A stretch of DNA of 10,218 nucleotides from a virus (IMGVR_UViG_2548876953_000015); one strand, 5' to 3'; positions 1-7,630 are shown, counted from the stretch's first letter. Notes: a model not told the origin generated them from the sequence alone. Numbers and translations are program-made.

Positions 1-622
1 TTGTCTGGGGACATTTTAGAATGGTTCAAAGGGGACATTACAGCTTGGTGTTAACAATAGCCTGCTTCTCCTTGCCTTTCGGCACGTAAGAGGCTAACCT
101 ACATATGTCTAGCATGAAATTGGCCTCAGATTAATGTTAAGCGTCTTGCAGGACGCGTAATGTTAACTGGGGCTTTTCTCTATCTGCCGTTGGTGTTCAT
201 GCCCGAGGCAGATAGCCTCAAGCACCCGCAGCCATTCTACTTAACTACCGTTACCTCGCCAATGTGAAATCAGTCAGAAAGGCGATCCATAAGAACAATA
301 GCAAGACAATAAATCGCCATTACAGCCGTAATAGCCAGCGCACATTTGAGAACCAGCACCACAACCTCCTGTATTGGACGTAGACCAGTCCTGATGAATA
401 TGAGGCTGTCTCGTCAGTGATTCAATACAACTATTGGGTATAGTTTCTCTGATTTTTTCTGTGGAAATGGGGCACAACCACTAGTCACCACCAGCACTTC
501 TTTTAATACGCAAAGTCCGACACAAGCTAACCTTCTAGTCCGCTTTGAGCGAAAAACAGCCATAATTTAGTGCCACGTATATAATGATAGAGCTATTCAA
601 GCTAGCAATTCACATGTAAAAA

Positions 623-651
623 TTCAGAGGGTAGAAGCACATAGTTATAAA
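623..651 (+). promoter_or_regulatory. Putative sigma70 promoter (TTCAGA-17 bp-TATAAA) upstream of the 595-aa gene
   Basis: Seen in sequence: -35-like ttcaga at 623..628, 17-bp spacer, -10-like tataaa at 646..651, about 80 bp upstream of the ATG at 733. A perfect tataat hexamer also lies at 580..585 but has no good -35. Hexamer matching by eye only. Confidence 0.2.
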
Positions 652-691
652 TGTTGGCTCCATCGACAAATTGCGGTCTCAAGTACATTTA

Positions 692-712
692 TTAATGTTG
701 CCCCCGCATTAA
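692..712. promoter_or_regulatory. Inverted repeat TTAATG-N9-CATTAA just upstream of the RBS of the 595-aa gene (possible operator)
   Basis: Seen in sequence: ttaatg at 692..697 and cattaa at 707..712, with a GC-rich 9-bp spacer. It ends 10 bp before the Shine-Dalgarno aaggtga (722..728). Confidence 0.3.
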
Positions 713-732
713 CAAATCATCAAGGTGACGAC

Positions 733-2520
733 ATGGACGATATTAATATCAGCCTCGACGAACTTAACACTATTGATTTATCCCCCTTAATCCAGAGTAA
801 GCTGCCAGTTACCTGCTTTGATATCACAAAGTATCTTTCTAGCCTAGGTGATGGAAGAGCGGAGATAAGACTGCTAACCCATATTTGCGGTTTTCACTTT
901 CGTCCCGAAAATCCACAGGTACCATTTGGTCCGTGCTTTCAAAGCAGCCAAGGTAGATCTGCAATTCCGGATGACATTAACGGGTTGTCGCTGGAGGTAC
1001 TTTCTCAATTTTGCCCGACGATAGAGCTACCCGAACTTCAAGCTCGTATTGCTGATACACTTTGGGTTCGTAAAATTGGTGGAATCCGTTTTCCTTTGCT
1101 GGCAGTCCGTGCTTATTATGCGTCCAGTATAGCTATTATGACATCGCAAGGGACGTGGGTTAGTGCTTTAGAACGCCTAGAGCGTGCGCTTAGGCTGTGT
1201 TGTTTTTTTCGAAAGCATACTGATTTCAGGGATGAATTTGATCAGCTTTCGGCACATCTACTAGCAGAGTATGAACGTACCAGAGAACAAGGCGATTCAC
1301 CTTATCCGCTGCGACTCCTGCAACTCGATATCGACTGTAAAGTGAGTGAGCCATCTTTTATTGCCCAGGAACTCCTGTTTCTGACAAAAAACTATCTGGC
1401 TCAAAAATTATTTTCATTTGCCGTCGATGCCTGTAAAACCGCAATCCCGATTGCGAATAGGTGCTGTGACAGAGATACACAGTTTGAATTCTGGCGGCTT
1501 CTTGCCGATACACATCTGGAAGAGTCAAAATTCCAAGATGGCGGTATGATTTCGGCAGCCTGCATGCAGAATGCTATTGAAGCACTGGCTAATATTCCAG
1601 GAACCCGAATAGAACGTCTTGCGCTGTATGAAGAAATGCGTGATTACCAAATCGAATCCCGTCACCAGATGTCTATCCTTCAGTCTCCCCCTCAAGATAT
1701 TAGTGAGATTGTCCATCAAGCCAAGAGTCGGGTAGTCGGAAGAGATTTGTTTGATATGGTTTTCAGACTTGCGATGCTGGTCTGTCGGCCAACCAGCATT
1801 GAGAGACTTAAGGCTCAAGCAATAGAACAAAAGGCCAACAGCATAGCTTGGATGTTTGGATCAACACATATTGATCATGAGGGAATGACACTTGCTCGCA
1901 TACCCGCAGGATTGGGGATTGATGATGCAAATGGGGCAGTTATTTGGCCCATAATGATGACGAGAATGCGTATCGACCATGAGTTGGCAGTAGCTGGGCA
2001 AATTATTCCTGCTACAGATGAGATCACAATGAAATATCCAATCTCGGAGGCGTTTTTTCGCGATATGTTCATCAATCATCCCTTCATCCCGTTTGGGCAT
2101 GAAGAGTTTTTCATCAAGGGTATGGTTTGCGGTTTCAATGGAGATTTTATGACGGCATGCCACGTGTTGATTCCCCAGATCGAAAATAGTCTGAGATATG
2201 TGGCTAAAATTAAAGGTGAGGAACCATCGCAGCTTCACGGGGACGGTTCGCAAGAGCGAAATGGACTCAAGGGATTACTAGATAATCCACTGATTATTGA
2301 AGCTTTCGGCGTAGACATAATTGGCAATCTTCAGGCCTTACTGGTAGATAAAATCTATGGTGATTTACGAAATCAACTAGCTCACGGATATGTGCCTGCC
2401 GGTTACTACAATCAACCTCCCTGCATTTTTGCATGGTGGCTTGTATTGCACATTCTAATGAACCCTACGGCGAGATACTGGCAAGCCACTTATGGCCAAG
2501 AGAGTGAGGCTCAGACTTAA
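733..2520 (+). CDS. Hypothetical 595-aa protein; candidate HEPN-like nuclease or abortive-infection cargo (family not recognised)
   Basis: Seen in sequence: uninterrupted 595-codon ORF with ATG at 733 and a good RBS (aaggtga, 5-6 nt spacer). It is convergent with the neighbouring prophage operon and looks AT-richer than the dic genes by eye. Near the C-terminus is D-L-R-N-Q-L-A-H-G (R546 to H551, nt 2368..2385), which matches the R-N-x3-H form of the HEPN Rx4-6H motif. The family assignment is inference; only the ORF itself is secure. Confidence 0.85.
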   Translation: MDDINISLDELNTIDLSPLIQSKLPVTCFDITKYLSSLGDGRAEIRLLTHICGFHFRPENPQVPFGPCFQSSQGRSAIPDDINGLSLEVLSQFCPTIELPELQARIADTLWVRKIGGIRFPLLAVRAYYASSIAIMTSQGTWVSALERLERALRLCCFFRKHTDFRDEFDQLSAHLLAEYERTREQGDSPYPLRLLQLDIDCKVSEPSFIAQELLFLTKNYLAQKLFSFAVDACKTAIPIANRCCDRDTQFEFWRLLADTHLEESKFQDGGMISAACMQNAIEALANIPGTRIERLALYEEMRDYQIESRHQMSILQSPPQDISEIVHQAKSRVVGRDLFDMVFRLAMLVCRPTSIERLKAQAIEQKANSIAWMFGSTHIDHEGMTLARIPAGLGIDDANGAVIWPIMMTRMRIDHELAVAGQIIPATDEITMKYPISEAFFRDMFINHPFIPFGHEEFFIKGMVCGFNGDFMTACHVLIPQIENSLRYVAKIKGEEPSQLHGDGSQERNGLKGLLDNPLIIEAFGVDIIGNLQALLVDKIYGDLRNQLAHGYVPAGYYNQPPCIFAWWLVLHILMNPTARYWQATYGQESEAQT

Positions 2521-2617
2521 AGTGAATAAGTTTACGAAGTTGGCACTTCCGGATGCATGTCCATATGAGTTGAGGCGATTTGGTTAATAAGGTTGAGTGC
2601 TGCTGAAATTATTCGAT

Positions 2618-2641
2618 GTCCGCTTTTGGCACAAAGCGGAC
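2618..2641. terminator. Stem-loop (9-bp stem, 6-nt loop) between the convergent 595-aa and 133-aa genes; possible weak bidirectional terminator
   Basis: Seen in sequence: gtccgcttt / tggcac / aaagcggac. There is no clean U-tract on either strand, so terminator function is uncertain. Confidence 0.3.
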
Positions 2642-2738
2642 AACCACGCCAGATCTACCCTGTGCCATGAAAAATGAGAATGTCAATTCACTCCTGAACT
2701 AATGCTTTTTAATCTAGTAACGTCTAAAATACCTAACA

Positions 2739-3140
2739 TTATCCCTGATAAAATGCCAGTATGCGCTGCATAACTTCACTCATCCGGCACTCGCGACAGA
2801 TTATGTTTAGGCGACTGTCGTAGCGACGTATTTCTCCATCAGGTAACGACCAGATAAGGTCCGGATCAACCACAGCTGTTTTCTTCACCTTTGCCCTCGA
2901 GAGTTTTTTGCGGGCGTTTTGCCAGTCCTTACGCGCCTGTTCAGACGGGAATAACCCGTAGCCGGAGTTGTATACATCGCCACTGGCTACCAGCTCTCTG
3001 GCAAGAACGCTCATCAGATATCTAGTCGCACCTGTTTTAGCTTCCAGTTGCCGTAACGTCTCACGACCGCTCTGGCGCACGAGTTCCACCACCTGCCCTT
3101 TAATTTTTTCCCGCTCTTCTTGTGTAAAAACTTTTGCCAC
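2739..3140 (-). CDS. Hypothetical 133-aa basic protein, distal gene of the prophage replication operon
   Basis: Seen in sequence: ORF with a GTG start at 3140 preceded by a strong Shine-Dalgarno (minus-strand aaggggga, about 5 nt spacer). It starts 40 bp downstream of the replication-gene stop on the same strand. No family recognised. Confidence 0.7.
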   Translation of the reverse strand: MAKVFTQEEREKIKGQVVELVRQSGRETLRQLEAKTGATRYLMSVLARELVASGDVYNSGYGLFPSEQARKDWQNARKKLSRAKVKKTAVVDPDLIWSLPDGEIRRYDSRLNIICRECRMSEVMQRILAFYQG

Positions 3141-4045: not shown

Positions 4046-4063
4046 GGCTTTGTTGAATAAATC
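4046..4063. repeat. IS903-type left terminal inverted repeat (GGCTTTGTTGAATAAATC)
   Basis: Seen in sequence: the 18-bp end sequence at 4046..4063 is the exact reverse complement of 5085..5102. Confidence 0.9.
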
Positions 4064-4122
4064 GAACTTTTGCTGAGTTGAAGGATCAGATCACGTATCT
4101 TCCCGACAACGCAGACCGTTCC

Positions 4123-5046
4123 GTGGCAAAGCAAAAGTTCAAAATCACCAACTGGCCCACCTACAATAAAGCCCTCATCAACCGTGGCTCCATAACTTTC
4201 TGGCTGGATGATGAGGCGATTCAGGCCTGGTATGAGTCAGCAACACCTTCTTCACGAGGCAGACCTCAGCGCTATTCTGACCTTGCCATCACGACTGTGC
4301 TGGTCATTAAACGCGTATTCAGGCTGACCCTGCGCGCTGCGCAGGGCTTTATTGATTCCATTTTTTCTCTGATGAACGTTCCGCTACGCTGCCCGGATTA
4401 CAGCTGTGTCAGCAGGCGGGCAAAGTCGGTTAATGTCAGTTTCAAAACGCCCACCCGGGGTGAAATCGCACACCTGGTAATTGATTCCACCGGGCTGAAG
4501 GTCTTCGGTGAAGGCGAGTGGAAAGTCAAAAAGCATGGCCAGGAACGCCGCCGTATCTGGCGTAAGCTGCATCTCGCCGTTGACAGTAAAACACATGAAA
4601 TCATCTGCGCTGACCTGTCGCTGAACAACGTTACGGACTCAGAGGCCTTCCCCGGGTTAATCCGGCAAACCCACCGGAAAATCAGGTCAGCCGCCGCCGA
4701 TGGCGCTTACGATACCCGGCTATGTCACGATGAACTGCGGCGTAAGAAAATCAGCGCGCTTATCCCTCCCCGAAAAGGTGCGGGTTACTGGCCCGGTGAA
4801 TATGCAGACCGTAACCGTGCAGTGGCTAATCAGCGAATGACCGGGAGTAATGCGCGGTGGAAATGGACAACAGATTACAACCGTCGCTCGATAGCGGAAA
4901 CGGCGATGTACCGGGTAAAACAGCTGTTCGGGGGTTCACTGACACTGCGTGACTACGATGGTCAGGTTGCAGAGGCTATGGCCCTGGTACGAGCGCTGAA
5001 CAAAATGACGAAAGCAGGTATGCCTGAAAGCGTGCGTATTGCCTGA
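4123..5046 (+). CDS. IS903-type transposase (DDE, IS5 family), about 307 aa from a GTG start
   Basis: Seen in sequence: the frame is open from TTG at 4078 to the stop at 5046. The translation (…KFKITNWPTYNKALINRGS…RGRPQRYSDLAITTVLVIKRVFRLTLRAAQGF…) is the IS903 transposase as I recall it. GTG at 4123 gives the 307-aa length I remember for that protein; the exact start is uncertain. Confidence 0.88.
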   Translation: MAKQKFKITNWPTYNKALINRGSITFWLDDEAIQAWYESATPSSRGRPQRYSDLAITTVLVIKRVFRLTLRAAQGFIDSIFSLMNVPLRCPDYSCVSRRAKSVNVSFKTPTRGEIAHLVIDSTGLKVFGEGEWKVKKHGQERRRIWRKLHLAVDSKTHEIICADLSLNNVTDSEAFPGLIRQTHRKIRSAAADGAYDTRLCHDELRRKKISALIPPRKGAGYWPGEYADRNRAVANQRMTGSNARWKWTTDYNRRSIAETAMYRVKQLFGGSLTLRDYDGQVAEAMALVRALNKMTKAGMPESVRIA

Positions 5047-5084
5047 AAACACAACCCGCTACGGGGGAGACTTACCCGAAATCT

Positions 5085-5102
5085 GATTTATTCAACAAAG
5101 CC
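5085..5102. repeat. IS903-type right terminal inverted repeat
   Basis: Seen in sequence: gatttattcaacaaagcc, the reverse complement of the left end. Confidence 0.9.
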
Positions 5103-7572: not shown

Positions 7573-7630
7573 TTTCTGGTGACGTTTGGCGGTATCAGTT
7601 TTACTCCGTGACTGCTCTGCCGCCGTTTTT
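7573..7630 (+). ncRNA. dicF: DicF small RNA (Hfq-dependent, ftsZ-targeting)
   Basis: Seen in sequence: tttctggtgacgtttggcggtatcagttttactccgtgactgctctgccgccgttttt matches the DicF sequence as I remember it almost base for base. It ends in a hairpin plus U-tract and sits between the ydfB/C position and dicB as in Qin. The 5' end is approximate (+/- 2 nt). Confidence 0.8.
7588..7630 (+). terminator. Intrinsic terminator forming the DicF 3' end (ggcgg…ccgcc stem followed by TTTTT)
   Basis: Seen in sequence: GC stem arms at 7588..7592 and 7620..7624, U-tract at 7626..7630. Confidence 0.55.

Follow-up and report, generated by a model that had tools for sequence, protein, structure and literature searches.

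DUF4209 was placed among the new HEPN families by Anantharaman et al. in 2013, where it overlaps the C6orf70 family that includes human ERMARD (PMC3710099). The listing for C6orf70/DUF4209 in that survey records a conserved Rx4-6H motif, fusion to TPR, a distribution given as 'Bacteria > Eukaryotes' and occurrence 'in R-M related operons' (R-M, restriction-modification), and the bacterial versions were predicted to be catalytically active (PMC3710099). Other HEPN proteins, namely HEC-08, DS-11, DS-38, PD-T7-4, AbiV and AbiU, unite a HEPN nuclease and a domain without catalytic function on a single polypeptide, and mutation of the HEPN motif abolishes defence by HEC-08 and DS-11. We analyzed a stretch of viral DNA of 10,218 nucleotides (IMGVR_UViG_2548876953_000015; hereafter the window), which carries a 595-codon gene whose product shares this single-polypeptide arrangement: an N-terminal DUF7380 domain and a TPR-like solenoid precede a C-terminal HEPN domain with a DUF4209 match. 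That the gene is a single-gene defence candidate is well supported, and as such it has already been catalogued.

The relevant catalog entry is PDC-S39, one of the 145 'phage defence candidates' (PDCs) of Payne et al., which were chosen by guilt by embedding, as genes lying inside BREX, DISARM or type I R-M systems, and entered PADLOC without testing. The other mentions of PDC-S39 that we found are PADLOC outputs only, for Escherichia coli O157:H7 and Pseudomonas aeruginosa PAO1. DefensePredictor, in its bioRxiv version, left PDCs out of its 'known' systems as unvalidated. In its Table S5, the label 'Predicted novel defense gene' is given to WP_021514655.1, an E. coli DUF4209 protein of 595 aa (1788 nt) for which the mean log-odds is 4.34; the table also has a 602-aa DUF4209 protein, WP_000710784.1, with a value of 7.4 (PMC13092281). 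Beyond this, the DefensePredictor table links the DUF4209 protein only weakly to the C-terminal domain of AbiJ (HHblits, with a probability of 67% over 19% of the query). Judging from species, length and annotation only, WP_021514655.1 may be the same allele as the window protein; it is not among the 15 members listed for the window protein's cluster. The HEPN nature of the protein, its status as a PDC-S39 candidate and the machine-learning call are all on record, and the gene is not new as a discovery.

At the sequence level, the window protein is a member of PDC-S39 without any difference from it, and PDC-S39 is itself a computational candidate only. The PADLOC model PDLC05012 matches over its full length with E 2.1e-102 (residues 43-581, profile positions 54-602 of 615), and a second PDC-S39 model, PDLC05011, matches with E 7.3e-102. 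These PDC-S39 models are alone at E≤1, with no match to AbiU, AbiV, AbiJ, ApeA, PD-T7-4, HEC-08 or the other PADLOC families. The Pfam domains DUF7380 and DUF4209 both score above their curated cut-offs (Table 1), and DUF4209 is matched by 25/25 members of our alignment A3. No NCBIfam match to the protein was obtained, and searches of PDB sequences with the protein and with a C-terminal profile gave nothing useful. An earlier note on this DNA, made by a model from the sequence without database searches, had presented the gene as undescribed and the rest of the protein as unrecognised. Neither description survives the Pfam and PADLOC matches, the HEPN assignment of 2013 and the DefensePredictor entry. 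Nor is the gene an orphan in the sense of homology. When 1.84 billion cluster representatives were searched with a profile of the family, 7565 matched at E≤0.001, and 2909 of these at E≤1e-30; the best 150 are all ~600 aa long and align end-to-end.

Function is indicated by the conservation of the HEPN motif. The segment DLRNQLAHG starts at residue 544 and places R546 and H551 on exactly the nucleotides that the earlier note had given. The R-N-x3-H pattern is expected by chance 0.03 times per protein from the protein's own composition, close to the note's rough figure of 0.02. Four occurrences of the loose Rx4-6H pattern versus 2.9 expected make it uninformative alone, so that only the R-N-x3-H form together with its conservation informs. 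In a large alignment of 260 homologs (median identity 25%, minimum 19%), R546 is present in 260/260 and H551 in 259/260 sequences, which answers the question of whether these residues are retained in homologs. N547 is kept in 235/260, and 22 sequences have H at that position. A second motif in the HEPN domain, the helix P-Q-I-E-N-S-L-R, is conserved to a similar extent, with Q482 and E484 each in 258/260 and R488 in 259/260. These three residues are invariant in alignment A3 and in alignment A1, which comprises 51 sequences down to 25% identity. Ten columns are invariant in A1, including R546, H551, G552, Q482, E484, S486 and R488.

A structure model of the full-length protein (pLDDT 90.4) predicts an all-alpha HEPN helical bundle for the C-terminal part, in keeping with the HEPN-like fold that had been proposed. 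The closest structural matches are HEPN toxins of HEPN-MNT pairs, at 6-13% sequence identity; Foldseek found no match at E≤0.001 among the viral structures of BFVD. A HEPN domain might also serve as a non-catalytic binding module, as in MtlR or the HEPN proteins of nucleotidyltransferase systems, in which case the protein would be no nuclease. The persistence of the Rx4H dyad in 259-260 of 260 sequences, accompanied by a second conserved polar helix motif, makes such a role highly improbable, and the 2013 survey scores the motif as conserved and predicts catalytic activity (PMC3710099).

The N-terminal part of the protein is also conserved. Within DUF7380, residues R105, D108, Y128 and R151 are near-invariant, each being kept in at least 97% of the 260 sequences. 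With W111 these residues make up a second cluster (window 1045..1185) that is conserved in at least 95% and lies far from the HEPN motif in the sequence. This cluster may form a pocket for a ligand, another active site or the interface through which the nuclease is gated. The adjoining TPR-like alpha-helical solenoid is a putative sensor or regulatory module. No paper containing 'DUF7380' was found.

We propose, with a probability of roughly 0.6, that the protein is a cytoplasmic single-chain HEPN endoribonuclease that acts as a homodimer, is held inactive by its DUF7380/TPR region until an infection cue arrives, and then aborts infection by cutting RNA. This mechanism is modeled on HEPN enzymes as known from the 2013 survey of Anantharaman et al. 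and from mutagenesis of DS-11 and HEC-08. The C-terminal HEPN domain would be a metal-independent endoribonuclease that uses R546 and H551, aided by Q482, E484 and R488. Because HEPN enzymes need two HEPN domains side by side and this protein has a single one, it would presumably function as a homodimer. The DUF7380 domain and TPR-like solenoid would keep the nuclease off and sense the cue, which may be a phage protein or a cellular change. On release, the nuclease would cut cellular RNA, phage RNA or both, and the resulting growth arrest or abortive infection would stop phage production. We give about even odds to the fuller proposal that the protein is a working infection-triggered RNase in which the DUF7380/TPR module, with R105, D108, Y128 and R151, constitutes a previously unstudied sensor.

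The architecture differs from those of the described systems in several respects. HEC-08, DS-11, DS-38, PD-T7-4 and the Abi proteins have zinc ribbons or CBS as partner domains, and their HEPN domains come from other Pfam families. The HEPN-MNT toxins (SO_3166, PDB 5yep; 7ae2) are proteins of ~130 aa that an MNT antitoxin encoded next to them neutralizes, whereas the HEPN domain of the window protein is the tail of a 595-aa chain. No MNT gene adjoins the gene in the window, where the neighbors are the sok RNA and the DUF977 gene. The likeness to the C6orf70/ERMARD family consists of a Pfam match above cut-off, the conserved Rx4-6H motif and a TPR-like fusion. However, eukaryotic members are described as having a transmembrane segment and localizing to the endoplasmic reticulum (ER), whereas the only hydrophobic C-terminal stretch of the window protein corresponds to the last helix of the modeled HEPN domain, and the window protein adds the N-terminal DUF7380.

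The genomic position of the gene is also informative. E. coli ATCC 25922 carries a Qin-like lambdoid prophage to which the window aligns in two segments at 99.5-100% identity. There the order is rem, hokD and the DUF4209 gene, followed convergently by genes for DUF977, an O-like replication protein, a YdaT-like protein and a Cro/CI-like protein, and then by a DicA-like gene, ydfA and dicB. The gene locus itself is 100% identical, and the 595-aa product is the same as WP_000340969.1 of that strain. Sibling prophages have differing cargo within these flanks, with hok/sok to its left and DUF977 to its right. Strain GE3 carries an AIPR-family AbiU-like protein (PADLOC AbiU, 7e-24; L091:5508-7283). 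EcE.CRE.COL carries a TPR protein with a DUF262 protein that matches HEC-06 at 9e-221 (L094:4905-8164); HEC-06 is one of the GmrSD-like candidates in the tested set of Payne et al. In 23CRST046 the slot holds a 269-aa hypothetical protein with no PADLOC match (L093:4954-5763). The Qin prophage of K-12 has relBE, ydfV and flxA (L087:3347-4738), and relBE is also found in ATCC 8739. The defence or toxin-antitoxin nature of much of this cargo bears out the suggestion that the gene occupies a prophage position used for defence cargo. From these sequence comparisons, the hok/sok-to-DUF977 slot behaves as a defence-cargo hotspot. Two slot cargo proteins without a PADLOC match may themselves be further candidates.

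The P2-like phage vB_EcoM-569R9 encodes a distant PDC-S39 member of 643 aa (E 8.5e-85), whose gene (L089:4041-5972) has gpA on one side and the portal gene Q on the other. A related fragment from ECOR46 has been deposited as 'P2-EC46' (AM157366.1). We take the gpA-to-portal region to be the variable one that holds old and tin in P2.

The gene is a stand-alone unit, as the earlier note had proposed, and the unit can be delimited. A conjugative IncFIB/IncFII plasmid of Klebsiella pneumoniae (NZ_CP031801.1) contains the gene with 193 nt of upstream and 121 nt of downstream DNA at 96.6% identity over 2102 nt, with both flanks unrelated. Since the identity to the plasmid is confined to 540..2641, these segments and the gene move as one 2.1-kb cassette, which holds no other open reading frame (ORF) of at least 50 aa. 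The Klebsiella plasmid copies encode a protein 97.5% identical to the window protein, and the plasmid copy also matches PDC-S39. The cargo swap relative to strain GE3 starts at ~531 and ends at ~2631, within ~10 nt of the cassette boundaries.

Versions of a CCGCTTT-N6-AAAGCGG hairpin bound the cassette on both sides and are also listed at L088 6809 and 8909. On the left, the plasmid preserves the hairpin intact and the window has a degenerate copy; the right copy in the window is a perfect hairpin, TGTCCGCTTT-tggcac-AAAGCGGACA, located where the homology to the plasmid stops (2641). We cannot say whether these hairpins are recombination sites, terminators or a coincidence. An integron-cassette interpretation was rejected, as direct reading revealed no GTTRRRY core sites at the boundaries. 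A clean empty site was sought and none was found; BL21(DE3) has a deletion that joins window position 382 to 2844.

The plasmid copies and the composition of the slot raise the possibility that the protein works as an addiction or competition toxin for the benefit of the mobile element and not of the host, stabilizing the prophage or plasmid or acting against competing elements, with no protection against lytic phages. The slot carries toxin-antitoxin cargo as well, with hok/sok adjoining and relBE in K-12; conjugative IncF plasmids carry copies, with an antirestriction gene 1.6 kb away; and the closest structural matches are the toxins of HEPN-MNT pairs. This is the main competing explanation, and we regard it as unlikely. 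The cassette contains no antitoxin-sized partner ORF, no MNT nucleotidyltransferase is encoded nearby, and at 595 aa, with an extensive regulatory part at its N-terminus, the protein is more in line with a sensor-effector that regulates itself than with a free toxin. Moreover, toxin-antitoxin and defence roles are compatible with each other.

Of the complete E. coli genomes (5426), 152 (2.8%) carry the gene, always on the chromosome and at no less than 99% identity. At least 80% of the gene is matched by 147 of the 152 copies, and the exact protein occurs on 866 contigs. Some E. coli copies are split by IS2 or an IS3-family insertion sequence (IS1203), which gives rise to separate 'DUF7380' and 'DUF4209' annotations (L092:1779-4879; H19, H20, H33). 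Matches in genomes are patchily distributed over Gammaproteobacteria, Cyanobacteria, Verrucomicrobia, Chloroflexi, Nitrospirae, Alphaproteobacteria and Bacillota.

Neighboring genes were surveyed with PADLOC as far as the second gene to either side, in homolog loci reduced to a non-redundant set (150 proteins). They include type I, II and IIG methylases, PD-T4-6, PDC-S05, PDC-S46, AriA-like and dynamin-like proteins, and several ABC-type ATPases, and in Deefgea a Lamassu LmuB-like protein is encoded directly upstream of the homolog. Apparent 'MADS' neighbors were set aside, because they are mostly partial mad3/mad8 matches of ABC-type ATPases and not complete MADS systems.

A PIN-domain protein of ~140 aa is encoded ~150 nt downstream on the same strand at 27/80 homolog loci, mostly cyanobacterial. 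These loci include L032, L033, L044, L047 (L047:11677-12105), L051, L054 and L064. A PIN-domain gene also comes after the homolog in one Chthoniobacterales locus, L029. The DUF4209 and PIN gene arrangement may be a two-nuclease variant. The PIN gene was rejected as a part of the E. coli unit, being absent from enterobacterial, Vibrio and Pseudomonas loci.

Several observations count against an infection-triggered defence nuclease. Many homologs lie in small islets amid housekeeping genes with no recognizable defence neighbor, as in Vibrio cholerae and Pseudomonas trivialis, and the defence neighbors found elsewhere are given as a raw tally. Fold and motif show neither which RNA is cut nor any regulation by infection. 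We found no published phenotype for PDC-S39 in the literature that was searched, where PDCs are described as untested or unvalidated. In addition, WP_021514655.1, WP_000710784.1 and the term 'DUF4209' are absent from Table S6 (units screened) and Table S8 (domains of validated systems) of DefensePredictor (PMC13092281). Expression of the gene in the window is in doubt as well, since its prophage is decayed, with an insertion sequence in the replication gene and an apparent one at the hok leader, and a consensus scan found no promoter upstream of the gene on the plus strand.

The housekeeping contexts are compatible with a role outside defence, in which the protein would process or regulate host or prophage transcripts during a stress response, similar to the role predicted for ERMARD/C6orf70. 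The same Pfam family does hold eukaryotic proteins that are predicted to degrade RNA at the ER membrane. Nevertheless, such a role is improbable for a gene that occurs sporadically, as one near-identical allele in 2.8% of E. coli genomes, that resides on prophages, plasmids and a P2-like phage, and whose place in the slot is taken by Abi or restriction cargo in other prophages.

The signs of decay could alternatively mean that the gene is a silent relic, intact in appearance and unexpressed in a deteriorating prophage. The two insertion sequences in the window's prophage, the consensus scan for a promoter and the copies interrupted by IS2 or IS3-family elements in some strains are what a relic would lead one to expect. 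We consider this very unlikely, because most E. coli copies (147/152) match at least 80% of the gene and the exact protein recurs on 866 contigs. Also, the 193 nt upstream move with the gene onto plasmids, which suggests that the cassette brings its own expression signals.

If the protein is indeed an infection-triggered HEPN nuclease, a very large defence family would be validated, with ~7,500 clusters at 50% identity in many phyla. Thousands of proteins on prophages, P2-like phages and conjugative plasmids would thereby obtain a function, and prokaryotic relatives of human ERMARD would gain a first experimental handle. The gene is present in E. coli ATCC 25922, a standard quality-control strain. 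The slot between hok/sok and the DUF977/replication region provides a compact and recognizable place for further defence cargo in Qin-like prophages. Beyond the existing record, the present analysis gives the precise bounds of the 2.1-kb cassette, describes the slot between hok/sok and DUF977 as a hotspot with defence cargo in sibling prophages, locates the homolog in a P2-like phage and points out the cluster of conserved residues in the N-terminal domain.

Table 1. Features of the gene, its cassette and the surrounding prophage DNA, in window coordinates.
Feature	Position	Strand	Basis
DUF7380/TPR-like/HEPN protein gene	733..2520	+	ATG-initiated ORF, 595 codons/aa
Shine-Dalgarno-like AGGTGA	723..728	+	4 nt before ATG; read from sequence
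DUF7380 domain, residues 4-166	742..1230	+	Pfam PF24098, E 3.4e-34, 118.6 bits, cut-off 27
TPR-like alpha-helical solenoid, ~residues 84-312, overlapping the end of DUF7380	982..1668	+	
HEPN domain, ~residues 457-594	2101..2514	+	
P-Q-I-E-N-S-L-R helix motif in HEPN domain, residues 481-488	2173..2196	+	Conservation
DUF4209 (PF13910) match, residues 484-573	2182..2451	+	Pfam, E 3e-8, 33.9 bits, cut-off 22.3
R-N-x3-H HEPN catalytic signature (RNQLAH, R546..H551)	2368..2385	+	
Single-gene cassette, 2.1 kb (193 nt upstream, gene, 121 nt downstream)	540..2641	+	blastn against plasmid
Left cassette end, degenerate CCGCTTT-N6-AAAGCGG hairpin copy, intact in plasmid	538..562	.	Repeat families D1, I1; junctions
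Right cassette end, perfect hairpin with 10-bp stem, no U-tract	2617..2642	.	Inverted repeat I11; RNA fold
hok leader/sok antisense RNA, left flank of slot	56..227	-	Rfam RF01794 full-length, 106.9 bits, E 4.4e-24
DUF977 gene, right flank of slot, first of replication module	2739..3140	-	ORF; ATCC 25922 annotation
DicF small RNA	7574..7625	+	Rfam RF00039, 72.5 bits; expected in Qin-like dic region

The reading frame described in the earlier note is real, with an ATG start, 595 aa and a ribosome-binding site, and the convergent downstream neighbor that it mentioned corresponds to the DUF977 gene. Two of its remarks were partly correct. The ~730 bp upstream, given as free of ORFs, indeed contain no annotated coding sequence in the identical ATCC 25922 locus, but the region holds the sok/hok leader, other DNA at 1..56 and a 67-aa ORF. 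The gene is richer in AT than its surroundings, as claimed, but only slightly (44.9% GC versus 47.7% in the rest of the window).

The upstream ORF (274..477, minus strand) has 67 codons and a Cys/Gly-rich C-terminus (GGCGAGSQMCAGYYGCNGDLLSCYCSYGSPF), and it is unannotated in ATCC 25922. Its coding status was doubted because 4/5 substitutions in the conserved part relative to strain GE3 fall at codon positions 1 or 2, and by this comparison it is probably not coding. A consensus scan found no U-tract terminator downstream of the main gene. A TTCAGA-17-TATAAA pair at ~624..651 was noted by eye only.

To the left of the slot, hokD lies directly beside the sok region in ATCC 25922, and in the window other DNA replaces hokD at 56/57. 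The segment 1..56 has no match to ATCC 25922 and adjoins an ISNCY-family transposase pseudogene in ATCC 8739. Positions 1..70 are 100% identical in ~796 E. coli genomes, and 1..56 appears to be the end of an insertion sequence that abuts the hok leader. Farther to the right, the O-like replication gene is split by a 1057-bp insertion (4046..5102) that has a 9-bp target duplication, is absent from ATCC 25922 and contains a transposase ORF of 322 codons (4078..5046). On the basis of its length and duplication, this insertion is presumably an IS903-group element of the IS5 family.

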